Of a stretch of DNA of 64,000 bases, positions 1,491-63,816 are shown one piece after another. The translations under genes and the position numbers were made by a program. The notes beneath the pieces were generated by a model, which saw only the letters and a list, made by a program, of their open reading frames with translations, did not search any database and was not told the origin of the DNA. Numbering within the stretch: position 1 is the stretch's first letter; every line of letters begins with the position of its first letter. The DNA comes from Eledone cirrhosa (Eukaryota). The stretch spans positions 280,612,001-280,676,000 of the forward strand of contig OZ024740.1 of assembly GCA_964016885.1 (NCBI GenBank), given 5' to 3'.

Positions 1491-1874
1491 GATCAAACTA
1501 ATAAAAATATGTGACATTAGACTTAAAAAATAACGTAACAAGGAGCTATTATATTCGAATTACCATTTAGATTTTTTACACAAGGGTATTTCTAAAAATG
1601 AGATGAAATATCTACAGTCAAGAATCGAAACTAGGTCACCGCCGTTTGCTGCTACTTCAAAAAGAACAACATTCAATAGATTTAAATTAATGAAGTTCAC
1701 AAATAATATATTACATTTTGTAAAGTTTCTTTAACATGGTATAAATACTATTTCTCTAAATATGATCTTTTTGAACATGATGTGTAAAGGACTTATATTC
1801 AACTAGTTATTGAGGCCAATAACTAATTAAATTAATATTCCACATATATATATTTTTATCTCCTTTCGTTGCAG

Positions 1875-2443
1875 ATACTATTTCATTCGGATTTGATCTC
1901 ATTTCTCTCGGAATTCGTCAAGCTTACATGATATTGCAGTATATTTCCTACATACTTCCTTTAAATTACTATGGTAATTATTCTATTATATCCCAATATA
2001 GCTGTGGAGAAACTAAAACTGGCTTGGAAGGCTTCAATATCATATTGATGCCAATAACCAACACAACTGCTATCACCTCTGTAAAGGAGCATCTGCCGGG
2101 TATGGCATCTATTGTAAAACGCCTTTCTTTTAATCTCTACATGCGCAATCTCAATAATGCACAGAGAGGTGTGATGGGGCATGAAGTTACTGTACTCTTT
2201 GTGGATTCATCACTTACAAAATTAACACCTGAACTGATAAAGCACATCAAAGATCTAAAACTCGCAGGTTCTAAAGTGTATATAATCGATGTTGGGAAAG
2301 GTAATTGGAGGGACCTGAGACTGCTTGAATCATTGAGCAGTCAACCTCCAAAGCGTTATATATTTAAAGTGCCAACTTATATAGACTTACTCGATAAGAA
2401 ACGTCGTTCATCAGACAAATTTCTTGCCGACTGTGCCTGCTAA
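1875..2443 (+). CDS. Terminal coding exon: divergent von Willebrand factor A (VWA)-like domain
   Basis: Polypyrimidine tract plus ttgcag acceptor ending 1874; spliced frame reads HTISFGFDLISLG...EVTVLFVDS...LKLAGSKVYIIDVG...LESLSSQP...IFKVPTYIDL, matching the VWA strand/helix pattern; stop TAA at 2441-2443; AATAAA at about 2632. Confidence 0.75.
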
Positions 2444-3384
2444 CCAATAATCATAAATTACTATTTATTTTTAATAAGCACTAAATAATTTTCATAATTC
2501 CATCTTGCCTCTGCGTTTACAAATAATACGGCAAAGATTATATAAATGAATATTAAAAAAGGATATGCTTACTATCTCTAAAATTCATTTAAATCGAATT
2601 AATTAGTTTAAGCTGATTAAAAATGTTTTATAATAAACCTCAGTCAATATATTAAAAACACCAAATTCTATTAGGATTAAACAATGAAAATGTCATAAAT
2701 AAATCTTGAACAAAATTCTAAAATAACTCTGAGGGAGGAATGATTTGTTTATTTCACGAATAGGGAATCGAAATTCGACAACGATTTTATTTACTGGAGG
2801 GAAATTGCAATAATTACTTATTTGTTATGTAATGAATGCTGTAAAATATTATATTGTAAATAAAATGAAATACCACATTAAATGAGTCCACTTTCTATGT
2901 CTTGTTTATAAATGATACCTAGTCAAAACCTTAATATCTCATTCCATATTATGTCGTACAAAATGAATGAGTAACAAATATCTGAGTATTATAAGGTGAA
3001 TAACTTGATAAAATATATTTTTCTTTTCCAACAAACACTATTTAGTTCAGTAAATATTTCCGTTGAACGAAAACTCATACACATAATACTTGTTATTACA
3101 TTCCTAAAATCGGATCGAGACATGTTTACTGCTTTCATCAAGTTGGCATGAAGACAAATTCAGTTACCTCTGCACTGTCTAAAACAATTCCAATTATTCT
3201 GATCAGCTGAGAGACATTTATCCCCTGCTTGCTTCCTACAATGTGAACACACCCAAAGGGAGTTTAAGTCTTGAAATTGCAAACATATTCTCAGTTGATT
3301 GAAGATTTTTCCACTCATCATTTCAGAATGCCAGAGTGTGTGTGTGTGTGTATGGGGGGGGGGGGGGGGTAGTTAGGTGGGTAA

Positions 3385-3568
3385 CAAACGCGGAAATAGC
3401 TCTAAAAGAGACAGATGCAATTATAAATAGCAAGGAGTCGGGTTACAATATAACCTCTTATAAACAGAAGGGTGGTCAGAATGGTCCATTTATATAAGGT
3501 TAAATTTGAACCCGACCCTTTGCTAATTATAATAGCATCTGGCTGTTTTACAGCTATTTCCGTGTTTG
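3385..3568. repeat. Fold-back (MITE-like) element with ~80-bp imperfect arms
   Basis: caaacgcggaaatagctctaaaagagacagatgc... is about 80% complementary to ...gcatctggctgttttacagctatttccgtgtttg around a ~25-nt loop. Confidence 0.7.
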
Positions 3569-3587
3569 AGATTCCTACAATTTTATG

Positions 3588-3590
<3 letters not shown>

Positions 3591-3644
<54 letters not shown>

Positions 3645-3657
3645 AATATATATATAT

Positions 3658-3708
<51 letters not shown>

Positions 3709-3709
3709 A

Positions 3710-3808
<99 letters not shown>

Positions 3809-3812
3809 ATAT
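3591..3812. repeat. (TA)n microsatellite
   Basis: Direct reading; representative of more than 20 long (TA)n tracts in the window. Confidence 0.95.
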
Positions 3813-4443
3813 ATAAGATCAAAAGATGGTTAAAGGAGTTCCATGTATTTTATTATGCGCATTTCAAAAACAAACATCATCATGCACATATATGTATATA
3901 TAGATATGTAGGTATATATACTCACATATTTCGCCACTTTCTACTCTAACCCCTCTTTCTTCCCCTCTCTTTCTCCCTATCTACTCTTACCCCACTTTCT
4001 TCCTCTCTCTTTCTCCCTCTCACTTTCACCCCCTCGTCTGACCGTTTAGCAGTTCTCTTCTCACTTACAACTGCGGCGATCGGACGTGTGTCTTCTTTCT
4101 CTCGATTACTCGGTCTCGAACTTAAGTTCTATTATCGAGTGGTCTTGGATTTCCTACCTATAGTTGCTCGCACGTTGCTCGGTTTGTGTTTTTTTCCCCG
4201 CTGTTTTGTTACTGTTTCTCTTTTCTTCCCCTTTGCTTTCCTTCCCTCCTTCCTTCGTTTTCCCAATAACTTATACAGTTATTGACGCCCTGGGGTGAAG
4301 TGGTACCTTGTCGTTAAAGTGTAGAAATATCCTAGACCCCAGTAGACAACTGATGAGGAAAACTCCCCAATCCCCTGTTCTTGTTTTATTCGTATTCCCA
4401 CTGCATTTTAAGTTACCTTAAATAGCAACTACACAGCCATTTC

Positions 4444-4789
<346 letters not shown>

Positions 4790-4824
4790 TGATATGTAAA
4801 GCTTCAAAATTCATTTCATATATA

Positions 4825-8477
<3,653 letters not shown>

Positions 8478-9221
8478 TTATATATATAGATATATATGAA
8501 ATGAATTTTGAAGTTTTACATATCACATTCTCTAAAAGAGGTACCTCTCTTTCTGTATCATCTACTGGCCCATTAGTTCCACCTGAAAGACATAGTAGCG
8601 ATCAATTCTCGCGTCTCTCAAAGATTCTTTTATTTCTTCTTCACTAAATCTTCTGTAAATAAAAGTTCTTTTCACTGTTAACCTTTACAACACATACTCC
8701 TTTGGAAATGATTACCCCCATCACCACATTGTGCGGTCTTTGTATACAAGGGTCACGCATGAATAAAATTTGCCTCAAGCACATGGTCGTTTCTTTGAAA
8801 ACAAACATTTAGAATATCCCCTAAGGGGACGTGACAGTCAAATCTCACTTAACAGCATTTAGATGCAATCATTATAAATATATAGGAACAGTACCCTATA
8901 TAACATGTGTACTCCTGAAACATACAAAACTAAACCTTCATAAACTTTACAATCTTTGATAATACTTTTAATGACTTTTCACCTTGACTATATATCGCAT
9001 AGCTGAAACTGCATTATAAAGGCTAGCCTCCGTCTTTAGGGCCACAACGGTTGGTGACTCTCTACAGAGCTGAATGGTGTATATATTTGGCCTATAGAAA
9101 CACCTATGCATAAACGTTTTAGAGTACCTCTAAAAAGAAAATACATTCATTTCCAAGCCTTCAGTCACTGAATCATTATAGCTGCTATCACTATCCTTTG
9201 TCTGTTATACCGTTATACCAA

Positions 9222-15229: not shown

Positions 15230-15235
15230 TATATA

Positions 15236-15371
<136 letters not shown>

Positions 15372-16080
15372 CGGAAAAAATGAAACGAAATTTCATTTCT
15401 CACTCTTAGTACGGCTGTAACTTAAATGTAAGTATGTACACGTACATACATATATGTATACAGACGTACAGTAGTACACTACGGCTTAATTCAGGATGTT
15501 TGTTTACAAACACACCGAGCATTATAATAAATGTTCGGTGAATCCATACGTACATATATATATATATGTGTGCATGTATGTATATATACATACTACTGTA
15601 CGTCTGTATACATATATGTATGTACGTATACATACTTATATTTAAGTAACAGCCGTACTAAGAGTGAGAAATGAAATTTCGTTTCATTTTTTCCGTTTAT
15701 CGTTTTCGGTACCCCGGCCGATTAACTCACTCGATATGCAAATTAGTCTGCACAGCCGTTAATATGCATAAGGAAAGTATATACTTTCAGACGTTCAATC
15801 ATCTGGCAGGAAGGTATACGTTGCTGCCGATAGCTAATAAGCTTGAAACTAGTACAGCGTTCCTTTGCCAGTGTTGAACAAATGAGCAACAATGGTTGCT
15901 AGACACTGTACGGCTTAATTCGGGATGTTTGTTTACAAACACACCTAGCATTATAATAAATGTTCGGTGAATCCATACGTACATATATATATGTGTGCAT
16001 GTATGTATATATATATACATACTACTGTACGTCTGTATACATATATGTATGTACGTATACATACTTATATATATATATAA
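15372..16080 (+). mobile_element. Non-coding HHR-bearing element, family A (retrozyme or solo-pLTR-like)
   Basis: ~429-bp period (15481 vs 15910) with a ~165-bp direct repeat; 15372-15476 is an inverted copy of 15591-15695; sits next to (TA)n; second copy at 47715-48129. Confidence 0.75.
15818..15860 (+). ncRNA. Type I hammerhead ribozyme, family A (A6C core mutation)
   Basis: acgttg-CTGCCGA-tagctaataagctt-GAAAC-TA-GTA-cagcgt. Confidence 0.7.
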
Positions 16081-16322
16081 TATAAAACGAAAAATCATTG
16101 ATGCATCTGATCTCAATTTATTGTGTGTTACAATTGTTTCGCCGGCGGACAGCTCGAGACACGATCATTGGTTGGATCTGTCTGATTCTGGATCAGCAGG
16201 TTCGAAGGACACGTCTAATGATTTCGGAGCAAATTCTTTCATATCATACTCTGCTCTGTAAGAGCATAGAGTGCTCAACCGGCATACCGCCTAAGGAAGC
16301 ATCTTAGTCACCATCAGACACA

Positions 16323-16988
16323 CATTTCCTCTCCCAATTAGCATAATTAACCATATAAAAAATCAATTAGACCAGGCTATAAGAATAAAGGCTCCTATGA
16401 AGAAATATTTGATAAATAACCGAAAGCGGCCTCTTCGCGGTTGACCACAATAGAGTATTTACCCAACATTTCAACAGCATGTAGAAACTGACTAAATATA
16501 CCGTCAACCATACACAATTAGGTATAAATTTAAAGTTAGAAGAAACGTGTACATACCTTAATTACATCTCTACCATGGTTTCGTTCGTATTTTGAAATAT
16601 CCTATCATTAAGGATAACTCGAGTATCGAACTCATCAGGAGACAAACTCAATAGGACAGTTAATTTTCCAAAGCGATCGCGCCAGAAATAGATTAAAAAA
16701 ATGGCTAAGAATCGTGACGTGGCAGTGGTCAAGTTAGAAAGAAATGTAATTACGGTATGTACACGTTTCTTCTAACTTTAAATTTATACCTAATTGTGTA
16801 TGGTTGACGGTATATTTAGTCAGTTTCTACATGCTGTTGACATTTTGGGTAAATACTCTATTGTGGTCAACCGCGAAGAGGCCACTTTCCGTTATTTATC
16901 AAATATTTCTTCATAGGAGCCTTTATTCTTATAGCCTGGTCTAATTGATTTTTTATATGGTTAATTATGCTAATTGGGAGAGGAAATG
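16323..16988. mobile_element. Fold-back element with ~245-bp arms and an HHR in the spacer
   Basis: 16323-16567 is the near-identical reverse complement of 16744-16988. Confidence 0.85.
16566..16643 (-). ncRNA. Type I hammerhead ribozyme with palindromic stem III
   Basis: Minus strand: gtctc-CTGATGA-gttcg...cgaac-GAAAC-CATG-GTA-gagat. Confidence 0.88.
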
Positions 16989-17083
16989 GTATATATTTTA
17001 TCTAATAATTCTAAGGACATGATTTATGATATATATTTATATATATAGATATATATATATGACAGTTGGCAGGTAAGCAGTAT

Positions 17084-17131
17084 ACTGCACTGATGAAGGG
17101 TATTTCTGAAAGAAACATTAGTGTCTGCAGT
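17084..17131 (+). ncRNA. Type I hammerhead ribozyme
   Basis: actgca-CTGATGA-agggtatttctgaaa-GAAAC-attagt-GTC-tgcagt; 6-bp stem I, weak stem II. Confidence 0.7.
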
Positions 17132-17247
17132 TCTGTTTACATGCCAACACAAGAGTAAGAATGCGGGGTCATTCTACTTACATGGATTTAAAGAGGCTGT
17201 TCGAATAATTGCAAACGAATCGAATATTATTATTAATATTCGAAAAA

Positions 17248-17365
17248 TTCGTTCAAATCCCGCCGAGGTTAACTTTGCCTTTCATCCTTATGGGGTCGAT
17301 AAAATAAAGTACCAGTAATGCACTGAGTAATTGCTGGCCTTGTGCCTAAAGTAGAAACAATTATT
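17248..17365 (+). mobile_element. SINE family 1, 5'-truncated
   Basis: TSD attattaatattcgaaaaa at 17229-17247 and 17360-17378. Confidence 0.88.
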
Positions 17366-17433
17366 AATATTCGAAAAACTCAGATTACATTTACTATATC
17401 CAGCTATGTAGAGTCATAAACTATTTAACTATT

Positions 17434-17460
<27 letters not shown>

Positions 17461-17469
<9 letters not shown>

Positions 17470-18081
17470 AAGTGTAATGAATTCTTTTACAATGGAATTA
17501 GCTCGAAGGAGGAAATACCCCTGAGCCGTGTATAAACTAATATATATGATGAAACACAGATACCAACACATCTGTATTTATATTGCAAAAGAAAATTTAG
17601 CCAGAATGAAGTATACTAATTATTATACTACAGTTTGTCCATATCGATTTAAAATAATAAATCAACAAAGACGAACTGCATTGCCAAATGGCTATGATGT
17701 TTAGACACATTTAAATTTCAAAATCAAAGCTGTTACGTTGATAAGTTTAAACTTTAAAATCCAAATATGTTTCGAGATGAATAAGTGTAGGAATATCATG
17801 TCCTGCTCTCCTCAGTAAACATCCAGGGACAAATTGATATACTTCACTTTTAAATAATTTAAAAGACTGTGTAACGCACATGGTTTACAGTTTCTAGCTA
17901 GTCTCATAACCGTACTGCTAGAAATAACAGTCGTATATATGAGGCAACGTTCAGCTCAGCCTAGGAGCAGTTATATTATTAAGTGTAATGAATTCTTTTA
18001 CAATGGAATTAGCTCGAATGAGGAAATACCCCTGAGCCGTGTATAAACTAATATATATGATGAAACACAGATACCAGCACA
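17461..18081 (-). mobile_element. Non-coding ~511-bp module with a ~110-bp terminal direct repeat and a decayed HHR
   Basis: 17461-17571 recurs at 17972-18081; HHR-like motif on the minus strand at 17759-17820. Confidence 0.6.
17759..17820 (-). ncRNA. Degenerate hammerhead ribozyme
   Basis: Minus strand: gttta-CTGAGGA-gag...ctc-GAAACATATT-tggat; stem I is mostly G-U pairs and the stem III palindrome is broken. Confidence 0.5.
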
Positions 18082-18117
18082 TTTATTTGGACAGTCAGAT
18101 TCGTGATGATTTCTCAA

Positions 18118-18155
<38 letters not shown>

Positions 18156-18159
<4 letters not shown>

Positions 18160-18688
18160 CATGTGTCCCTTAGCGCCTTGTGCGTGTAGGAACATATACT
18201 CTATTATTATTCTCCTCTTGGTTGAGAAAAAAATTTGGTCGTTCTGACTGCTGCTAGTTATAGCGGTAGCCGACTGACCTCCCTGCCTCCGCCTCTATCT
18301 TTACACTCGGCCCTTGAAAAAATTGATTCCACTTCATTTTCTCTCATCTCGGGAACAATTTTGAATAGCGCCAGTTCGTAATTTGAATTCGGGAATTTTA
18401 TATTCTTCGAATGAAAAGATCCTTCTGACGAGAGTTTTTCTTTGCAACGGTTGCCGTATGGACTCCGTTTATTTTTGAGACTCGAAACCGATTCGGTAAA
18501 GGTAACTATAGTAAGTAAAGTTAATTTTTTTAAATTTATTTTGAAACTTTTTCTTATTTGCTAAACCTTGATTATATATGTTCTGGCTCGTTAATTTATT
18601 AACCTGCCATTGAACCACATTGGCATATGGTTGGACAATACATGTGTCCCTTAGCGCCTTGTGCGTGTAGGAACATATACTCTATTAT
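18156..18688 (+). mobile_element. Non-coding 481-bp monomer plus a 52-bp terminal repeat, carrying an HHR
   Basis: 18156-18207 is identical to 18637-18688; (TA)n on both sides. Confidence 0.8.
18421..18502 (+). ncRNA. Type I hammerhead ribozyme
   Basis: cctt-CTGACGA-gagtttt...gagactc-GAAAC-CGattCG-GTA-aagg. Confidence 0.88.
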
Positions 18689-18920
18689 ATATATATATCT
18701 TCTCTAGCGATCGACTTTCGTCAAATCGGACCGAGGAAACAATGTTTCCGTTGGTCTTTCCAGTTGCTAGTACTATCTATCGGCCGCAACTCCAGGTAGA
18801 AGGAGCAAAGTGAAATAAAGTGCCTTGCTCAAGGACATAACGCATCGCCTGGTCCAGGAATCGAACTCAAAATACTAGATGAGTACCTTATAAATACCAC
18901 GACATTTATTTGGACAATCA

Positions 18921-18969
18921 GATTCCTGATGATTTCTCAAGAATGAAACAGTTCTAGTCCTGTAGAATC
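18921..18969 (+). ncRNA. Type I hammerhead ribozyme, family B
   Basis: gattc-CTGATGA-tttctcaagaat-GAAAC-AGttctagtcCT-GTA-gaatc; 5' half duplicated at about 18098-18121. Confidence 0.88.
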
Positions 18970-20328
18970 TCATCTATATTAAAACCTTTTATACTCTGCT
19001 ATGTATTGAGTACCTTACTTATTTGTGTTTGCCGCCATATGATAACAACTGTATTAATTAATATTGTCAAAACAATATTGAGTTTTATGATAGATCACGC
19101 ACTTAAAGCAACATCTTTGTTCGTAATAGAATTTACACTCCTTTTATTCAATATTTTAGAGAGAAACCTTTTGAATGACCTGATGCATTTTTGATGCTCA
19201 TTTATTGATTTACCTGCATTTATAATAATCTTATTTTCTTGATTTTAGATTAAATTTTATTGTTGTAAATGCACTGTTGGTGTAATCGATCATAAGATTT
19301 TATTGTATTATTGATATATTAGTTAAAAGTATAACGTAAATGACAGTATCAAATGTTGAATCCACCTGCCAACAAAATACATCATATCGATATATTTACT
19401 CTCACGTGTACGTTTTGTAAAGTTTCTAACTTATTGATTTATATACTTACGTACTATTATGTTTTTCTGTATTCGAAAACTATCTATAATCTATTTTGAC
19501 TTTCACTCGCCACGGGATATATTAACACTAACTATAATATGTTTTCTATTTCCCTGTCTATTTCTATTCTTTCCTTATTCACCACGCTACACCATGCTGT
19601 CGACTTCATTTTCTTCCCATTCTTTTGAGGATTAGCGTTTTGAAAGTGCATGTTCCTAAAATAACCAACTGAGACACGTGTTAAATCATATCTACTGAAC
19701 CACACCTATCCCTACCAACCACCATTTAACTTAGTGAATTTTGCGTCGTTTGCAACCTTACTGATTCGTTCTATATTTAATCTCTCTTATATTACAAACT
19801 ATACCTCCCCCGTATTTCTCTCCACAACATTCTCTTTCCTTGTACCCCACACTGGAGATTTACATCCTCTGTTTACATTCACGCCTGTTCAAATAATCTT
19901 CTCTCTAATATTTTCCAGTTTTCTAGCCTCTTTTTTACTTTCCGTATTTTCTTTTCTATATCTCTTCCCTCATTCACCCTCTCTATCTGCCTTACCGTCT
20001 CTCGTGTGTTGCATGCAGCTTTGCAAATCTGCAAATAACTATGGTAGAGCCGATTTAGAAGAAAAATCTAGTCTTCATACAGTCAGTCTAGAAGCTGTGT
20101 CATTCCGAAATGCAAACAATGAGCAAATGGCAGAGATTCTGATTTCTCTAAGGCAACTTATATTGTGCTGGTGCAACGATAAAACACCCTAGCGTTTGTC
20201 TGCGAGCCTCATCTGTAGTGAGGACTGACAGCTTAACGCATAATTGGGTGTTGACGGTAGGCAATTTTATCCGATCTAACTCGCAAAGACAAATGCCAAT
20301 ATATAATTGAGCAATCATCATCACGATC

Positions 20329-33297: not shown

Positions 33298-36200
33298 TTT
33301 TCTCTTTCTCTTAATTTTGAGTATATTTTTTGACCGGCCACCTTCCTGGTGGCAAGGTTGTAAAAGAAAAGAAATTGTCATCCCTTGAATCGCAAGAATG
33401 TTTTGCAAATTTTGAAGGTGCCAGCTATCGCAGCCATTTGTAGACTATGAATTAGGTAGCTGCGCTTTTTGTCCGCAAATCCAAGTTCAGTCATACTTTG
33501 GTCCAAGCGGGTTGGTATATAACCCGTAGCACCAATAATGATGGGTATGAAGCTAAAGGTGTATCTTGGATACTGGATTTGTAAACTCCTCATCAATGGT
33601 CCGTAGATGTCCTCCTTCTCCTGTATTTTTCTGACAACGTTTACATCAAGTGGGCAGCTGATCTCCACAACAGAACACGTTTTCAATGTGTGGTCCCAAA
33701 CTACAATATCAGGCCGGTTGTGCTTTAATTTGGTGGCAGTTTTTATTTTCAGGTTCCACCAGTATTCCTTAGTGCCATCTGTCTCAATATATTCTTCCTC
33801 GTTTGTTGTTGATTTTGTTTTCCGAAGTGCGTTCCAGATGGTTCTAGCTATCCCATCGTGTCTCATGGGGAGGTAGTAGCGAGATGACATTCTTTCGCAG
33901 CTGGCAACAATGTGGCTTACATCCTCGATCTTTGTTTTACATAGCCTACATTTATTGTCAGCTGCTGGCCCTCCTCTTTTGTGCAGCAGATATTTGGTAG
34001 GGAGTTCTTGTTCCTGTATTGTATAGAGATATCCCTCAAGGTGTGATGTCATAAACTTGTCGGAACTCCATGCCAGGCTTTTTGAGTGGTTTATCCCCTC
34101 TATGGTCTGTGTTTTACGCCTCAAGTATCCATGCACAACTTTTTCTGTAAATTGGTCAATTTTTTTTTCTTATTTGAACATTGAATAGGATCTTCCGATT
34201 TCTCTGGGTGAGAGATTTATATCGGGCTTTATTCCATATCTCTCCTCCAGATCAGTCGCTATTCTAATGATATTTCTTTTTTCATGGTCATAAACCTGGG
34301 CAAGATGGTTGCCAACCTTTTTCCTCTGTTGAAGGTGTTGCTTCAGTGTCACTATCCGGGTCTCATATGTTGTTAATATTGATTTTAGACCCCGGCCACC
34401 TTCATTGCGTGAGAAGTATAGCCTATCCACATCACCATTGATGTTAAAGTTCCCAGTAACACTGAGAAGTTTTCGAGTTCTAACATCCATCTCACTTAGT
34501 TCTTGCAATGACCAGTTCAGTAGGCCAAATGTTGGCGTTAGAATTGGCACAGCATAAGTATTGTGGGCAATGTATTTGTTGTATGCTGACAGTTCTGATG
34601 ACCATATTTTCTTTACTCTTCTGAGGTATTCAGTTCTGGTTCTCTCCTTATTTATGGGTCCATCATATCTGACATTCTCATCCTGTCCAAGATATCTGTA
34701 GTTGTCACCTGACTGCAGAGGTTGTATTGTCAGGCCGTTCATCTCTAGATTTCTAGAGGAGGGCACAGCTCTTCCACGTTTTACTGCCAAATATGCACAC
34801 TTGGACTCACCAAATTTCATTTTGATGTCGGTTGAAAATTGTGTAATGAGGTCCAATTGTTTCTTGATGTCATTGATATTTGGCCCATACAACTTCAGGT
34901 CATCAACAAAGAAAAGATGGGAGATACTTCTGGTCCCACTTCTTTGTCGACCTTGTTTCCTGAGTAGGTAAGATAGTGGATTCAGTGAGAGAACGAAGAG
35001 TAGCACTGACAAGCTATCACCCTGAAAGATGCCCTTCTGGTAATGTATCTTATCAGTCTTAACCTGCTCCTTCTCACCTCTAAGGATCAAACTGGTGTAC
35101 CAGTTCTTGGTCAGGCGTTCAACAGCAGCTACCAATGGTTGTGGGACTTTAGCTAACTGTAAAGCCTTAACAATCCACCCATGAGGTACACTATCAAATG
35201 CTTTTTGATAGTCCAGCCACACGACAGTCATGTTTCTGCGATTCTTTGTTGTTTTTTCCTGAATCATTTTGTTAGTTAGTAGGTGATCTATGCAACCCCA
35301 CACCTCCCTCTTTCCACCAGCTTGCTCAGGTGTTATGATGTTGTTGGTAGCACAGTGATCCTGTAAGAACAGGTTAAGGCACCCAGTATATAATTTATAC
35401 ATGATGTTTTGGCAGGCAATTGGGCGGTAATTTTTAGCAAGGGTGGTTTGGCTATTTTGGGGAATGAGGAGAGTAGAGGCAGTTGATAACCATCTGGGCA
35501 GTTCTTGTGTGCCCTTAATGGTTTCTGTAAACAGCCGTATGAGATCTTGCCGATAGAAAGTGAAATTCTTCAACCAGTATCCTGTAATGAGGTCTGGGCC
35601 TGGCGATTTCCTATTCGACATTTTCTGTAGAGCTGTTTCCAGTGTTGACCCATCTATGTCATATTGTTTTGTCTGGACATGTTGGCAGTAGTCCTGTTCC
35701 AGTTCTTTTAGCCAATTAGCTTGTCTGTTGAATCCGTCATCCGTTTCCCATACAGATCTCCAGTAGCTCTCAACCTGTTCTTTTGAAGGGGTGTCATTTA
35801 CAGAGATTGAGCTTTTGCCACCGAAGCTGCGATAAACTGATTTAGGATCTCTGGCAAACAATCTATTTAGCACTTGTCGTTTATGTGCTGTTGACTTATA
35901 TTTTAGTCTTTCTGTTGTAGCTGTGAGTTGTTGTTTCAACTGGTGTAATTTGGAGTTCAAAGTTTTAAATTTTGTATCTCCAAATCTTCTCTCTAACATT
36001 TTCTTTAGGTCTTCCTGGTGTTGTGTGAAGTTGCTCTCTATGTTGCATTTCATAACGACTGCGATGTGTGAGATACTTCGTCTCAGGGACAAAATTTTGG
36101 TTTTTAAATTTCGCATCCACGCTGGTTCAGGCTTTCTGTTTGTATCTTGATTGCGTGGTTTTAGATGTGTGTTATATGCTAGCAATGTGACAGCTGAAAC

Positions 36201-37325
36201 ATATAACAAAACATTAAGCGTTTCAAATGTCGTTTCTACACCTTTAGATCGTATAGCCTTCAGATAATTGCCAGCTATTTCGTTCACCGCTTCCAATTCC
36301 AATTTAGTCGGTTCTTTACTGACTCTAGTGTTGTATGGTCTGTCACTCACATTAAGGCTGTGTATCTCTTGAAACATATCATTCCATATCACTTGTAGGG
36401 AGCCCACAAGTTTTTGGTGCTCTGTTTGTTCAGTAGAGTCATGAATTTCAGCCTCGTTGTTGATGTGGTGACAATTACTACTAGAGTCAGCTGACCTTTC
36501 TCGCTGTTCTTCAGTGGAAGTGGGATGAATTTCAGCAAAATTGTTGGTGAGCTGTTCACTGTTAGATTTAGCTGGCCATTCTCTTTGTCTGTCAGTGGAG
36601 GTGGGGTGGTTGTCTACAAGGGCTGTATTTGTAGTATCACTCGATTCCGTTAGATGTATCAACTTACATCTAATGATACGTTTTGCCTGTTCATTTAAAT
36701 GCTTTGGAGAAAAGTCTAATTCTGGGTGTTTGGAGTTCCATAAAGTTTTTAGCCGTTGCATAAAACCGAACTTTTGGGGTTCAGATTGTTTGTATGCTTC
36801 ATATAATACTTTGTTAAGCTCGTAGGTCCACTGTGTACAACGGTTGTAATTGCGATTTGGTCGAAGGAGACTTGTACTTTTTGCCATGATGAGTTCGTCT
36901 ATTCACTAATATTTCGTATTTATTTTTCAAAATAGTCGATGATCTTCTTTAAAAGTTACGACAAAGTTCTGTCAGAATCAAATTTAAAGTTATTCACAGC
37001 TTGAGTAATATTTCTTTTCAGTTAGTTTTTAATTCTACAGCTGTGTTTTATATAAATGTAATATTTCTTTATAAATGTAATATAACAACGTTGCATTTAT
37101 ATGTTAAAGTGTATGTATCGTTCATATATCATAAGTGTATGTATCGTTCATATAAATAGGTGTTTTACAACACACTTACAGTTCAAACACTTATGTAGAA
37201 TTATTGTATGTAATCTTACCGCGTAATGTAGCTCAACTTTTTCCAATATATGGTATGTTGCCTTCATGTAAGCCGTAATTACACACGTCCGATTATCGGA
37301 CACTGACCACAACGGTCGCCATTTT
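33298..37325 (-). mobile_element. Near-full-length R4/Dong-clade non-LTR retrotransposon
   Basis: Single long RT + zinc knuckle + REL endonuclease ORF; (ATGT)n on both flanks; aaaatggcg at the putative 5' end. Confidence 0.88.
33378..36887 (-). pseudogene. R4/Dong ORF with one in-frame TAA at 34172-34170
   Basis: KSPGPD, NYRPIAC, WLDYQKAFDSVPH, GIFQGDSLS, HLFFVDDLKLY; after the stop the same frame continues EKKIDQFTEKVVHGY...CRLC...HIVASC...RHD...RPDIVV...VEISCP. Confidence 0.92.
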
Positions 37326-41202: not shown

Positions 41203-42791
41203 TGCCTCTCAAAAGTTTACAACACATTAGGAAAAATGCAGTTTTAGGTATTTTTAATAAAGTTAGGGTAATGAAAATTTAACTACTGATAGAACATATA
41301 ATGAGGCATTTAATGATACAATCATATTTAAAAAAAAATAACAAGGAAATAACACATGAAGAAAAATCAATATTTTTATAACGCAAAAGTTTACAACACA
41401 TTTTATATTTATCGCTTTTTTTCAAGAAAATTCTTAAATTTTCAGATTTAAAATTCAGTAGAATGTTCTAGATTAGGTTTAAGGTAACTTCTAAGGACTA
41501 TTAAAAACATTACATCATTATTTGTCTGACAACCATCCTGTAAACATTGACAACCGTCCTGTAAACATGGACAATATGGGGAAAAATAAACTGATTGATC
41601 AAGACCTCCGTAAAGGCATTGTAGACCTTCATACAAATGGTGTTGGTTATAGAAAGATATCTTGTCAGTTAAATGTGCCATTGAGTTCAGTTGGTACAAT
41701 AATTCGTCACTGGAAATCTCATCATTCCATCTGTCCTCTAATTAGTTCTGGTTGTCCTAGAAAGATAACGGAACGTGCAGCTCGGTTATTGACGAGAAAG
41801 GTTGGCAACGAACCCCGGTGTACTCTTAAAAATCTTCAGGATGACCTAGAAGAAAGTGGAGTAAAAGTGAGCACAGATACAATTAGTCGTTCACTTCGTC
41901 GATATAATATCTTCTCGAGGTCTCCAAGGAAAACACCACTTCTTACGAGGAAACACGTTCTTCGTCGATTAAACTTTGTAAATGAGCATCTAATCAAACC
42001 TGCGTCATTTTCGGAAGATGTACTTTAGTCGGACGAAACAAAAATTGAACATTTTGGTCGAAATGCTGTGGCAAAAGTCTGGAGAAAGAAAGGTACTGAA
42101 TATTCGCTGAAGAATACTATTCCAACTGTAAAATTTGGAGGTGGTCTGGGGTTGCTTTAGTGCCACAGGAGTAAGGCATTTTGAAATAATAGAAGGAAGA
42201 ATGGGTGGCACTTATTATAGAGGTATTTTCTAAAGGAATTTACATCAAAGTGCACATTCTCTCAGCTTAAAGCCAGGTTGGTTTTTTCAACAAGATAACA
42301 ATCCAAAGCATACTGCAAAGCTAACACAATCTTGGTTAAGTACGAATGGAATAAATGTTCTAAAATGACCATGTCAGCCTCCAGATCTTAACCCGATCGA
42401 AAATTTGTGGAGAGAATTCAAAAAAGGAAACCCCAAAATATCCCTGAACTAAAGAAAATTTGTTGTGAAGAATGGATAAATATTAGCCAAGAAACATGCA
42501 AGAAGTTTGTAGGAGGCTACTCCAAACGCCCTACAGGCTGTACTTAGCAACAAAGGTTACGCTACAAAATATTAAGAGATGATTTAATAAATGTGTTGTA
42601 AACTTTTGCGTTATAAAAATATTGATTTTTCTTCATGAGTTATTTCCTTGTTATTTTTTAAAACTATGATTGTATCATTAAATGCCTCATTATATGTTCT
42701 ATCGGTAGTTAAATTTTCATTACCCTAACTTTATTAAAAATACCTAAAACCGCGTTTTTCCTAATGTGTTGTAAACTTTTGCGGGGCACTG
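41200..42791 (+). mobile_element. Tc1-family DNA transposon, IR/DR type, full length but defective
   Basis: TA|CAGTG...CACTG|TA; ~203-bp TIRs each containing two copies of aaaagtttacaacacatt. Confidence 0.95.
41576..42575 (+). pseudogene. Tc1 DD34E transposase pseudogene
   Basis: MGKNKLIDQDLRKGIVDLH...GCPRK...VL*SDETK...FQQDNNPKH...PDLNPIENLW...GYATKY*, with several stops and frameshifts. Confidence 0.92.
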
Positions 42792-44387: not shown

Positions 44388-44469
44388 AACAACTAGACAG
44401 TATAGGAGACTGTTTCGCAACATCTTAATAAGTGAAGTTCACACTCTTCTCTGCTCCTCAGTAGTTGTT
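44388..44469 (-). ncRNA. Canonical type I hammerhead ribozyme
   Basis: Minus strand: aacaacta-CTGAGGA-gca...tgc-GAAAC-AGTctcctatACT-GTC-tagttgtt; 8-bp stem I and 5-bp stem III. Confidence 0.92.
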
Positions 44470-44759: not shown

Positions 44760-44921
44760 TATTTAACCAATAAATGGGGCCCTAACAGGTACTAATACTC
44801 CGGGTAAGAGCAGATCTGGGAGTGATAACAACTAATGGGTAATTCCACATTCCCCACAGCTCCTGAACTTCCGAACTGGAGCCTTGCCACTGCATGTAGT
44901 TTAATGTCATACCCAGGACAA
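44760..44921. repeat. Interspersed repeat resembling a common octopus repeat
   Basis: ggtactaatactccgggtaagagcagatctgggagt...gtcatacccaggaca; recognised from memory only, single copy in this window. Confidence 0.4.
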
Positions 44922-44924
44922 ATA

Positions 44925-46841
44925 TGTATATATACAACAGCACACGGAATCTAACACAACCAGATTCCCGATATACCAACTGGATCGCCCACTCTGCCCA
45001 CCGCCTGCCAACCGCGAGCTGGAAGAAAAACTCTCGAGGCTAAAACATACCGTATTTAACATCTTACGGAAACAGAAGAAGATAGCCCCAAACCTCTCTA
45101 GGACGCAACAACTCGCCCTGAAGAACCTGCAGAATAGGGAACTCATATACTTACCATCCGACAAAGGTAAAGCGTTTTGTATCATCTCTCCAGCCACATA
45201 CAACAACCTAGCCTTTGAACACTTAAGCGACAACGAACTATATACAGAGATCCCGGACATAACTGCAGCCCAGATCGAAAAACAGGCCAACTCCATTTGG
45301 TTCGACTTTTGTAGTAGAAGACAACTCCCAAATAAATTTAAGTCCAATTACACCACTAGAAATAGCAGACTGCCCACTTTCTATCACCTCATCAAACCCA
45401 TAAGAATAGTACTAAAACACAAATAAGACTCATCGTCTCTAGCATAGAAGGGCCCCTATACAAAATCTCCTGGCTCCTCTCCCAGGTCCTCAAGCCTCTA
45501 CACTCCACCTTTCCCGGGAATGTCAGTAGCTCCGACGAGGTCATACGTAGACTACACCAAATCCAGCCAGAACAACTTAAACTCAATAGATACGCCTTTA
45601 GCCTTGACGTTGTCTCCCTCTACACTACAGTCCCCGCTCATCCAGCTGTCGATTTATTGACGGACTGCGTGGTCGCCGAAGACGTCCACTGCTACGGCCT
45701 CCACCCGACGGACATACACCAACTTTTGTCCTTCACAGTGGACAACACGTACTTCACCTTCCACCACCACACATACATACATACAACAGGATTACCCATG
45801 GGATCCAGCCTATCGGGCCTGCTGGCCATCACCTACATGAACCAGCTGTAATTCCGAGCCCTCAACACCTGTCATTCCTATACCTTCTTCATCCGGTATG
45901 TAGATGACATACTCATCCTTACATCATCCCGTGAAGAAGCGGATAAAATATACATGACATTCTCCAGCATGGACGCCAATATAAAGTTCAGCATGGAACA
46001 CCCCGATGACTGCGGTTCCCTATCCCTATTGGACTTCCAACTCAGGGTAACAGAGGAAGGCGACATCCACACCTGCTTCTACAAAAAATCCGCCAGCGGG
46101 AACCTGTTTGTACATTCCAGATCAGCCCTCCCAGTCAGCGCTAAGTTCGGATACATAAGGAACGAACTAACACGTATCCGGAACAAATGCACCGACGCAA
46201 GAGACCGAGACACACTCACCACACATTTCCTGGAAGTACTTAAACTGAACGGATACCCGACGTCCACCGCGAACCGTGCCAGAAACAACAGAGGACACCA
46301 CACCCGAGGCACTAACACCTGCTTCCTGAAGCTCCCACACTTCAGTGACGAAACAACAACAGCCATCCGCAGATCTATCAGACGAGAGGGACTAGATATC
46401 CAGCTAGTCCACTCAGGACCTTCTCTACGCGGACAGCTAACCAAGAGACACTCCACCAGACATGACAGCCGCTGTACTCTGGCCAACTGCCCCATCGACG
46501 ACACAGACATATGCCACCAGGCTTACGTCGTATACAGATTAGAGTGCGACAAATGCAGCAATTTCTACGTAGATAGCACCACCAAACAACTTCACATTAG
46601 AATAAAAGAACACCTCAACACTAATGCTTCCTCATTTAAGAAACACCCAGTAAAAGGCAAAAACACCGACAAAAACATAATAGTTAGGATAGAAGCTAAG
46701 GAAAGAAACCTCGGCAATCTTAGAATTAAAGAAGCACTAATTATAGACACAACGCAACCACCAATCAATAACAGACTTGAACTCAACACACAATTTTTAA
46801 CAGGATAGAACACCTAGCCCCACACTTACACCTCCACGTAT

Positions 46842-47714: not shown

Positions 47715-48129
47715 GAAATTTCGTTTCATTCTATTCCATTTATCTTTTTCGGTGTGCCCGGCCGACTGAACTCACTCGATATGCAAATTAGGCTGCTCAG
47801 CCGTTAATATGCATAAGGAAAGTATATACTTTCAGACGTTCAACCATCTGGCAGGAAGGTATACGATGCTGACGATAGCTAATAAGCTTGAAACTAGTAC
47901 ATCGTTCCTGTGTCAGTGTTGAACAAAAAGGTGACGTGGTTGCCTAAACACTGCACGGCGTAATTCGGGCTGTTTGTTTGTTTACAAACAAACAAACAAA
48001 CCGAGCATTATAATAAATGTTCGGTAAACCGATACGTGCATATATATATAAGTGTGTGCATGTATGTATATATATATATATACATACTACTGTACGTATG
48101 TATACATATATGTATGTACGTATACATAC
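47715..48129 (+). mobile_element. Family A HHR element, second copy
   Basis: Colinear with about 15673-16066. Confidence 0.8.
47863..47905 (+). ncRNA. Type I hammerhead ribozyme, family A (intact core)
   Basis: acgatg-CTGACGA-tagctaataagctt-GAAAC-TA-GTA-catcgt; palindromic ACTAGT stem III. Confidence 0.9.
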
Positions 48130-48137
48130 ATATACAC

Positions 48138-48171
<34 letters not shown>

Positions 48172-50168: not shown

Positions 50169-50230
50169 TGATAAACTATGTGAAAAAATATGATTATTGC
50201 CGCACAATACATAGGAGAGTATAAATATTT

Positions 50231-50458
<228 letters not shown>

Positions 50459-52439: not shown

Positions 52440-52860
52440 TATACGTTATGTAGATAGTCATACAACATGCAATGTGATAAAATATAGATATATAGTATTA
52501 TAATAACAATCCACAAGTATATTTGTCTTGGACAACAGATTTACTGGAAGACAGCTATTGAGAAAATGAAAAAAAAAAAAAAGAAATCAAGGTAGATTGT
52601 GTGCCTTTAATATATTATAAGACATCACCAAATGAAAGATACCGCTCTGCCCTAACGCCGGAGTGTTTGACCAGTGTAACATACCATCCATGACTTAAAC
52701 ACATATGACTAAAGCATGAAACAAGCTTAGAATAAAACTAAAACCTCAGTTTATAGTTTATATATATATGTAAGCAAAGGGATATTTAATTTGACAGGTT
52801 TTCTGGAGTATAATATCAATGATATTAATAAATGGAAATTATATTCATAAAACCACATTT

Positions 52861-52919
52861 ATTCTATTATATATATTTCAAGGATACCAAAACTTTGGTA
52901 CACTCTCATCAGATAAAAT
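52861..52919 (-). ncRNA. Type I hammerhead ribozyme (left arm)
   Basis: Minus strand: attttat-CTGATGA-gagtgtaccaaagttttggtatcctt-GAAA-TATATA-TA-atagaat. Confidence 0.75.
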
Positions 52920-53031
52920 ACAAAGTTTGTTTTATAAATATTGACATATCCAGGAACGAGATCTTAATGGTTCAAGTTTTACCAGCTAAAACTTGAACTG
53001 GATATGTCAATATTTATAAAACAAACTTTGT

Positions 53032-53090
53032 ATTTTATCTGATGAGAGCGTACCAAAGTTTTGGTATCCCTGAAATATATATAATAGAAT
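53032..53090 (+). ncRNA. Type I hammerhead ribozyme (right arm)
   Basis: attttat-CTGATGA-gagcgtaccaaagttttggtatccct-GAAA-TATATA-TA-atagaat, overlapped by AATAAA at 53088-53093. Confidence 0.72.
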
Positions 53091-53115
53091 AAATATGGTT
53101 TTATAAATATAGTTT

Positions 53116-53166
<51 letters not shown>

Positions 53167-56481: not shown

Positions 56482-56569
56482 TCATTTTCACCTGATGAGA
56501 TCAGTGATAATCGATCATGGCTTCACAATCGATCTATCTCTTATTGAAACACGTGTCGTGATTAAATGA
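56482..56569 (+). ncRNA. Type I hammerhead ribozyme with palindromic stem III
   Basis: tcattttcac-CTGATGA-[long imperfect stem II including atcgat/atcgat]-GAAAC-ACGT-GTC-gtgattaaatga. Confidence 0.82.
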
Positions 56570-62926: not shown

Positions 62927-62965
62927 TTCTCTAATAATAATAATTATATATATATATATATATAT

Positions 62966-63094
62966 AATATAGAAATGGCTTCTACAGGACTAGAACTGTT
63001 TCATTCTGGAGAAACCCTCAGAAAGCATCAGGTGCTTCCTGATGATTTCTCCCGAATGGAACAGTTCTAGTTCTGTAGAAGCCATTTCTATATT
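62966..63094. ncRNA. Head-to-head pair of family B hammerheads
   Basis: Plus 63034-63082: gcttc-CTGATGA-tttctcccgaat-GGAAC-agttctagttct-GTA-gaagc; the minus-strand copy has CTGAGGG and GAAAC; 5-nt spacer. Confidence 0.75.
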
Positions 63095-63780
63095 AAATAT
63101 TAATACTCTGCTATGTATTGAGTACCTTACTTACTGCGGTTACCCCCATGATTCACTAGCACTTTTCCTCCACTATCTTCTTCTTAGTTCCACCTTCTCC
63201 ATCTCACCAGTACTCTCTCCTGTTCCCCCTCTTACTCTACCTTCCACCCATGTTTTCGCCTCTTCTTTCCACCACACCACGTCCTTCTCTCCACCGCACC
63301 GCTAGTCTCCTGCTATTACTTCTACACTTTCTCTCCATTCTCAGCCCTCCATCATATCCAATTTCAAATCCTTCCTCTGCCAGCTCCATTCTACTTTCAA
63401 ACGCTTCTTCCGACCTCTTCCCCTATTTATATCCAATGCTCCTTGCATCTCCAAACTCATCTTCACAAAAAACACGCTACGATAGTCTACATCACCTTTT
63501 ATAAGTCGATGTCTCCACCACCACCTTATTCCCCAAGATTTCCGTGTCAAATTCCACCCCACCTCATACTCTGCTCCCACCACTAAGCCCTGGGCCATCC
63601 TTACGCGCTCCTCTCACCATCTCATGCGGGCGACTATCCGTTCCACTCTCTCTCAAATCCGTTCTCTCTTCAAGATGGCCGACTGAATACGCACAAGTGG
63701 TTTTTTTTCTCCCCATTTTATTTTCTCATTTTCCCCCGTTCTTTCCTCTCATCACTCTTTACTTTCTATTTATATCTCTA

Positions 63781-63816
63781 TCTTCTGACGAAGGTCTAGT
63801 GTCCGAAACGTTAAGA
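63781..63816 (+). ncRNA. Minimal type I hammerhead in a pyrimidine-rich PLE-like 3' end
   Basis: tctt-CTGACGA-a-gg-tctagtgt-cc-GAAACGTT-aaga; about 100 bp upstream of (TA)n. Confidence 0.8.

Follow-up and report, generated by a model that had tools for sequence, protein, structure and literature searches.

Several described systems resemble the elements considered here. Animal retrozymes devoid of long terminal repeats (non-LTR retrozymes) have been described by Cervera and de la Pena (2020; PMC7229834) and by Li, Clavereau and Pollet (2026; bioRxiv 10.64898/2026.07.22.740005), the latter preprint deriving them from Penelope-like elements (PLEs). A signature of tandem, inverted and tailed copies has been described for PLEs (PMC8557442; PMC3846280), and Hydra PLEs insert in (TA)n, Hydra-1_Obim being listed from Octopus (Craig et al., 2021; PMC8557442). 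Furthermore, a PLE protein of the anole was found to cleave and extend both strands, starting at two internal sites that define the tails (Frangieh et al., 2024; PMC11167929). Herein, we analyse a 64,000-nucleotide (nt) stretch of the Eledone cirrhosa genome (GenBank assembly GCA_964016885.1, contig OZ024740.1, positions 280,612,001 to 280,676,000 of the forward strand), called the window below. At 15230-19037 of the window, seven modules belonging to unrelated non-coding families (A-G) lie side by side in TA repeats. This interval is probably a chain of independent insertions of seven short hammerhead-bearing families, copied by a PLE enzyme into (TA)n. The modules are further members of the published class of animal non-LTR retrozymes. 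Since both the element class and its link to Penelope have been published, the locus itself is ordinary; the notable part is the scale.

Like the animal non-LTR retrozymes, the elements are non-coding units with one type I hammerhead, a GC content of 32-38% and head-to-tail copies, occurring as monomers or short multimers. They also co-occur with PLEs, of which retrozymes have been proposed to be non-autonomous derivatives. Their unit size of 430-660 nt lies above the 170-400 nt given in PMC7229834 and within the 51-972 nt of the 2026 preprint. Unlike the published retrozymes, most copies here are 1-1.5-mers that lie dispersed in (TA)n and have inverted arms. In Xenopus, 24 of the 57 families had matches to known elements (2026 preprint), whereas no pseudo-LTR relative was found here. 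The passages on animal non-LTR retrozymes in these two sources make no mention of cephalopods. With the pseudo-LTR hammerheads of PLEs (Cervera and de la Pena, 2014; PMC4209133) the modules have in common the type I fold, many families per genome, mostly single motifs and, in A, B, C and E, a short palindromic stem-loop III; unlike them, A-E are whole short units, and stem III of D is long and stable. The (TA)n target, the partial tandem with an inverted 5'-truncated copy and the one-sided tail are as in Hydra-clade PLEs, and the ribozyme stem III of Hydra-1_Obim resembles that of family B (PMC8557442). In contrast to the Hydra clade, the modules are non-coding, have tails of 44-109 rather than 30-40 nt and share no sequence with the sampled Hydra 3' ends. 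Two internal starts, cleavage and extension of both strands and an AT-rich target were likewise reported in vitro for the Poseidon element PAc of Anolis; however, PAc starts in an AC-rich stem-loop within its open reading frame (ORF) that lacks homology to the target, whereas both ends here lie in non-coding RNA at TAT-like words that match the TA target (PMC11167929).

Hammerhead modules of the locus

An earlier reading of the letters alone (the sequence-only reading) had seen six different hammerheads here. The following features were mapped, in window coordinates:

15230..15369: (TA)70 tract, left target flank
15367..15476, minus strand: inverted arm of family A, stopping at the long 3' end
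15480..16073, plus strand: direct arm of family A, a 165-nt partial copy and one 429-nt unit, stopping at the short 3' end
15818..15860, plus strand: type I hammerhead of A, palindromic loop III, predicted cut after 15854
16074..16330, minus strand: family G, an older module, the seventh, overlooked by the sequence-only reading
16125-16212, minus strand: hammerhead-like motif of G with variant core CCUUCGA
16323..16752, minus strand: direct arm of family B, covering 83-512 of a ~659-nt unit and lacking the 3' end
16565..16644, minus strand: intact type I hammerhead of B, palindromic stem-loop III, predicted cut after 16571
16740..17035, plus strand: inverted arm of family B, stopping within an AT-rich tract at the short 3' end
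17060..17435, plus strand: family C, 5'-truncated copy of a ~437-nt unit
~17084-17131, plus strand: hammerhead of C, stem II damaged
17251-17368: insert in C, a fragment of an abundant repeat, putatively like a short interspersed element (SINE), with a ~20-nt duplication
17436..17465: (AT)15 tract common to the 3' ends of C and D
17461..18082, minus strand: family D, one 511-nt unit and a 111-nt partial copy, long 3' end
17696..17823, minus strand: intact type I hammerhead of D, 8-bp stem I, long stem III, predicted cut after 17704
18071..18121, plus strand: 51-nt fragment of family F, the 5' half of a mutated hammerhead
18120..18156: (AT)18 tract
18156..18688, plus strand: family E, a 52-nt identical partial copy and one 481-nt unit; the long 3' end lies within (TA)n
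18421..18502, plus strand: type I hammerhead of E, intact, with the cut predicted after 18498
18889..19037, plus strand: family F, 3' part of a unit that is at least 572 nt long
18920..18970, plus strand: intact hammerhead of F, predicted cut after 18964

Families A-G span 3,266 of the 3,671 bases at the locus, and apart from one weak 54-nt match between B and E no sequence is common to families A-F. As the sequence-only reading had stated, TA tracts separate most of the modules and no reverse transcriptase (RT) frame lies among them: the interval holds no ORF of at least 150 amino acids (aa), and tblastn with the PLE proteins of the window found no match in it. The modules differ in age, since the best non-self identity is 98% in families A, B, D and E and 92-95% in the other three (93% in G). 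In family B, 249 nt of the inverted arm are 98% complementary to the direct arm. The 5' end of D and the F fragment share 12 nt head-to-head at 18071-18082, possibly a template switch or a two-family insertion.

The motifs were searched on both strands with a type I hammerhead descriptor (CUGANGA, GAAA and NUH around stems I-III, open stem I). In its strict form it gave 9 matches in the window, compared with a mean of 0.025 and a maximum of 1 in 40 dinucleotide shuffles, and a tighter form gave 7-8 against 0 in 15 shuffles. All six motifs of the sequence-only reading, at 15818(+), 16566(-), 17084(+), 17759(-), 18421(+) and 18921(+), were recovered at or within a few bases of these positions, compared with 0-2 motifs in shuffled controls. 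Its estimate of about 14 motifs per 64 kb was fair, given a window total of 8 strict motifs and some 18 places homologous to some hammerhead family. The six ribozymes are thus present, but only four are intact: all type I features were found in the window copies of B, D, E and F, and they are incomplete in those of A and C, although 20 of 26 A and 14 of 16 C family copies have them. An Rfam scan of the window returned 119 matches, exclusively low-complexity microRNA matches with none to hammerhead families, and a generic block search of the window for permuted hammerheads, whose core blocks are ordered unlike type I (type SGC; PMC10085705), found none.

The catalytic core is conserved at 0.98-0.99; in five of the six families no other part of the motif is as well conserved. 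Double, compensatory changes are few (stem I of A and F, stem II of B and E, none in D); the copies are closely related. When the motifs were folded in isolation, that of D alone was notable (z -2.3). Its stem III closes 64 nt downstream, making the motif longer than had been implied, and D is the best candidate for monomer cleavage.

In family A, the window core reads CUGCCGA, an A6C change private to this copy, with A present in 23 of 26 distinct family copies; at position 15827, A accounts for ~100% of the aligned depth, which came from three contig runs of unknown kind and was used for family alleles, not copy numbers. The window hammerhead of A is likely impaired by this change. In family C, the core is intact in 14 of 16 distinct copies. 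Family G was found by comparing the window with ribozymes of other loci. Its motif keeps GAAA, GUA and stem I intact, and the core reads CCGUCGA in 10 of 14 close relatives and CUGAGGA in a distant subfamily, with the canonical CUGANGA in none of the 15 best copies. Either this core is a tolerated variant, or the family may be spreading with a dead ribozyme.

Each module between 15367 and 19037 carries a single ribozyme, and the two consecutive units with complete ribozymes by which Li et al. (2026) define an active-retrozyme locus do not occur here. With one ribozyme per module the locus cannot itself release unit circles, and its copies are likely dead ends. The locus is therefore likely inert, and unit circles could come only from other loci.

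Insertion footprint and template

The way in which the families enter TA repeats was examined across further loci of the genome. With 20 loci examined per family, direct arms stop at fixed positions, beyond which TA repeats begin, at 19 loci of E, all 20 of D and 18 of F. Two fixed 3' ends, 44-109 nt apart, occur in each family; they were mapped to 372 and 481 in E, 441 and 511 in D, and 559 and 655 in B. Among 43 two-armed loci, 32 pair a long with a short end; in one the same end occurs twice, and in ten an arm stops elsewhere. As the long end had been part of the queries for E and D, the test was repeated for E with a ribozyme-only query, which gave the long and short pairing in 9 of 10 loci. 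The copies display the partial tandem, the inverted 5'-truncated arm and the one-sided tail that mark Penelope-like insertion. A shared hairpin at the fixed ends was considered and rejected: hairpins lie near most ends, and the only common motif is a terminal TAT-like word.

These footprints constrain the template. The distance from the predicted cut downstream to the fixed ends is 15-393 nt, and the arms read across the cut. In addition, a gathering of 5' ends at the cleavage site, a possibility prompted by the start of the inverted arm of B at the cut position, was rejected, as 2 of 131 inner ends lie within 4 nt of it compared with 2.35 expected. Since the arms cross the cut and 5' ends show no excess there, a cut linear monomer alone cannot be the template. 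Both a religated circle and an uncut multimer can give such arms, and the circle is by our estimate slightly the better bet.

Altogether, the following mechanism is proposed. A multimeric copy elsewhere in the genome would be transcribed, and its ribozymes would cut the transcript to unit length, the unit then being ligated into a circle, a step we favour by a small measure over the uncut multimer as template. The enzyme, most likely the RT-endonuclease of Hydra-clade PLEs, would nick both strands of a TA tract. Reverse transcription would start at two fixed internal RNA sites, 44-109 nt apart, one per DNA end, and such a pair of starts would produce head-to-head arms with one long and one short end. 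The terminal TA tracts of each insertion would in turn be targets for the next one, so that families pile up.

A circular template fits the likeness of pieces within a locus and the predicted folding of the units, by analogy with other animal retrozymes. In B, D and E, pieces from one locus diverge less than those from separate loci (1.6-2.1% vs 2.9% in D), and locus-private variants in four families include 53 common to several pieces and 430 found in one piece only. As circles, the units are predicted to fold better than shuffles, with z-scores of -3.3 to -10.8. With the same elements and enzyme, the template could also have been a linear transcript, left uncut, of a donor in partial-tandem or multimeric form; the ribozyme would then be weak, protein-assisted or active at a different stage, and a circle would not be required. 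This alternative, which we hold to be a serious minority possibility, would explain why arms show no preferred stop at the cut site; multimeric donors do exist, and most copies are 1.0-1.5 units long. It fits less readily with arms that reach 2.8 units, with private variants common to tandem pieces, with the catalytic core being the best-conserved part in five of six families and with units predicted to fold as compact circles. Moreover, circles are known for the retrozymes of coral, mussel and axolotl (PMC7229834).

Family units and the candidate mobiliser

Family searches scored the 40 best of the first-look candidates (A 1,277; B 3,529; C 2,292; D 1,575; E 2,763; F 2,257; G 2,361), and 15-20 loci, the best-scoring matches, were fetched per family. 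Self-comparison gave tandem periods of ~429 nt for A, ~659 for B, ~437 for C (few loci), ~511 for D and ~481 for E. Homology between loci of a family ends at the unit or its tandem or inverted copies, and the longest ATG-started ORF per unit is 33-87 aa. No collinear upstream ORF was found in 120 loci of A-F, 15 G loci and 30 further E loci, the ORF linkage of D and B being based on earlier family loci and that of E also on the ribozyme-only query. Given short periods and no ORF, families A-E are short non-autonomous units and not solo ends of full-length elements. Each is a short non-coding unit with one type I hammerhead, as animal non-LTR retrozymes are. Among 20 loci per family, dimers with two whole ribozymes at a distance of one unit number 3 in A, 1 in B and 6 in D; they were also seen in E, so that A, B, D and E have all the testable traits of that class, tandem two-ribozyme copies included. 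The F unit of at least 572 nt starts in a microsatellite, as does that of G. An internal 180-nt duplication in family F (locus L109, 1107-1453) has TATA-like words that act as additional end points of inverted arms (loci L104 and L113). The distinct non-autonomous families proposed by the sequence-only reading are thus borne out for A-E by their periods and lack of ORFs, with F lacking a period and both F and G starting in a microsatellite.

The sequence-only reading had also named an outcome that would reduce the novelty, namely that every module is only the solo pseudo-LTR of an autonomous PLE. That the modules are such 5'-truncated ends is unlikely overall and most plausible for F and G, whose 5' boundary falls in a (TA)n(TG)n tract. 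In favour of it, F shows no tandem period in 20 loci, the microsatellite at the start of F and G could conceal more sequence upstream, and most metazoan PLE ribozymes are single motifs of truncated elements (PMC4209133). Deep sampling was also confined to the two PLE families of the window, with 60,769 and 17,126 candidates. The case for whole units is that the period of A-E is a short unit, that homology between loci stops at the unit or its copies, that the loci listed above hold no collinear upstream ORF, and that none of 36 sampled PLE ORF 3' ends matches A-F.

A plausible mobiliser of the modules is a young Hydra-clade element that lies outside the module interval:

5350..7708, plus strand: frameshifted Hydra-clade Penelope-like ORF with RWK, DKT, CxCX5C and, at the C terminus, GIY-YIG

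Its assignment to the Hydra clade comes from motifs read in the translation and compared with the description in PMC8557442, together with a Pfam GIY-YIG match (E 5e-4). The family is young: its 150 best endonuclease-region matches are 97-100% identical, and several open frames of ~780 aa exist. A second PLE family, at 44905-46808, is older (83-92% identity). Since the PLEs of the window and families A-F share no sequence, the mobiliser assignment rests on target and footprint. The proposal that PLEs mobilise the modules accordingly stands as far as the Penelope-type footprint and the (TA)n target go, and a sequence link to the PLEs of the window was not found.

The PLEs themselves show few canonical ribozymes. 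The young Hydra-clade family has a hammerhead-like 3' motif at ~8265-8300 (GAAAC...GUA) whose 5' core is non-canonical in 30 copies, and it appears to spread without a canonical ribozyme. None of the 36 PLE ORF 3' ends has a canonical hammerhead before the first TA tract, several having altered cores, and non-coding elements seem to be the main carriers of canonical motifs in this genome. A 508-nt palindrome lies 5' of the Hydra element at 4825-5329, and its 3' end has a 123-nt, 100% identical inverted copy at 8225-8347; by this arrangement the element would be a very recent two-armed insertion.

Several points weigh against PLE-driven copying of ribozyme circles as outlined above. No PLE carries any of A-F as its own 3' region, either among the 36 sampled ORF 3' ends or at 60 loci belonging to the two PLE families in the window. 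PLE insertion in vitro was not impaired by mutating the ribozyme (PMC11167929), and of 9 retrozyme dimers from Xenopus only 1 was cleaved (bioRxiv 2026.07.22.740005). Predicted folds clearly favour the hammerhead for D only, stem I having a predicted probability of 0.07 in E and 0.01 in F. The absence of a tandem period in F counts here as well, and dimers are absent from 20 C loci and 20 F loci. Within-locus divergence in family A (3.9-4.6%) is no lower than the 4.3% between loci, and a multimeric donor or local conversion would also account for the common private variants. Finally, as the loci are best-scoring matches, they are biased to young, long copies.

Genome-wide density and significance

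The abundance of hammerheads was estimated from 99 evenly spaced 10-kb stretches, 989.8 kb of the 3.0-Gb genome. This sample contained 63 intact motifs in 21 families, compared with 1 and 1 in two shuffles, so that window and random genome alike are far above the shuffled control that had been called for. Extrapolation gives ~190,000 intact motifs genome-wide (bootstrap 127,000-263,000), lowered from the ~250,000 suggested by an earlier, smaller sample (34 motifs in 400 kb). With 35 sequence families in all DNA sampled up to this estimate, the prediction of a very large ribozyme repertoire is supported. The targeting of (TA)n likewise extends beyond the locus: besides the 3' ends in TA tracts, a (TA)6 stretch is found no more than 500 nt away from 97% of the ribozymes at random loci, compared with 49% of random points.

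The sequence-only reading had called the locus a candidate hotspot. A special hotspot or functional trap, such as open chromatin or a piRNA-type cluster collecting ribozyme elements or making processed RNAs, is very improbable. It would account for four families with intact motifs inside 2.4 kb and for A-G filling nearly all of the locus; more than three families per 3.2 kb occurred in none of the 99 random stretches, one of which had three, and the Poisson probability of at least four is 2.5e-5 per 3.2 kb. However, the interval was picked after the fact, and clustering is genome-wide: near an anchor copy, the density of other families is 1.8-fold higher (0.115 vs 0.066 per kb), and 2 of 114 anchored loci hold four families, which implies roughly 660 comparable clusters in the genome (80-2,300). 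The window (8 motifs per 64 kb) and the neighbouring 200 kb (16) are both near background, and the modules have mixed orientations, differing ages and three degenerate members. The idea of a special hotspot is weakened by this comparison; the locus is the crowded tail of genome-wide clustering, likely a dense but not unique spot.

Elsewhere in the window lie a second family A copy with an intact core, F-like copies and four other hammerhead families. These hammerhead elements were mapped as follows, the motif at 44388 resembling the hammerhead of D:

44388-44469: hammerhead element
47715-48150: hammerhead element
50205-50345: hammerhead element
52822-53132: hammerhead element
56488-56561: hammerhead element
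62945-63133: hammerhead element
63781-63816: hammerhead element

The window also contains a non-LTR retrotransposon with a long RT and zinc-finger ORF and one stop (33378-36902, minus strand; Pfam RVT_1, zf-RVT) and a Tc1/mariner transposase fragment (41495-42028, plus strand; Pfam HTH_SB, HTH_Tnp_Tc3_2). A 206-aa open frame at 1823-2443 (plus strand) looks by eye like a von Willebrand A-type exon, with no Pfam match, and the cluster may lie in or near a gene.

The scale, about one intact hammerhead per 16 kb, can be set beside published counts. It greatly exceeds the 2,000-9,000 motifs reported for each genome in PMC4209133, obtained with different descriptors; the axolotl has 126,247 motifs in a genome roughly ten times larger, and mussel and coral have 5,000-6,000 (PMC7229834), again with differing descriptors. 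The word 'ribozyme' is absent from the main text of a 2026 octopus repeat annotation (PMC13282606). No survey of octopus or cephalopod hammerheads or retrozymes was found in the literature, repeat databases lying outside that search.

The mapped long and short ends provide exact predicted start sites for testing retrozyme mobilisation and the circle template, both open in the cited papers. A broader reading is offered only tentatively, and we consider it rather doubtful: dozens of non-coding RNA-circle families, with ~190,000 intact hammerheads, might have no sequence in common, either among themselves or with their helper, and yet be written into both ends of TA repeats from two fixed starts. 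If this were true, the Penelope enzyme would recognise a structure or a TA-matching word and not a cognate 3' end, making it a promiscuous copier of ribozyme circles, and family G may add CCGUCGA as a natural active variant of the hammerhead core.

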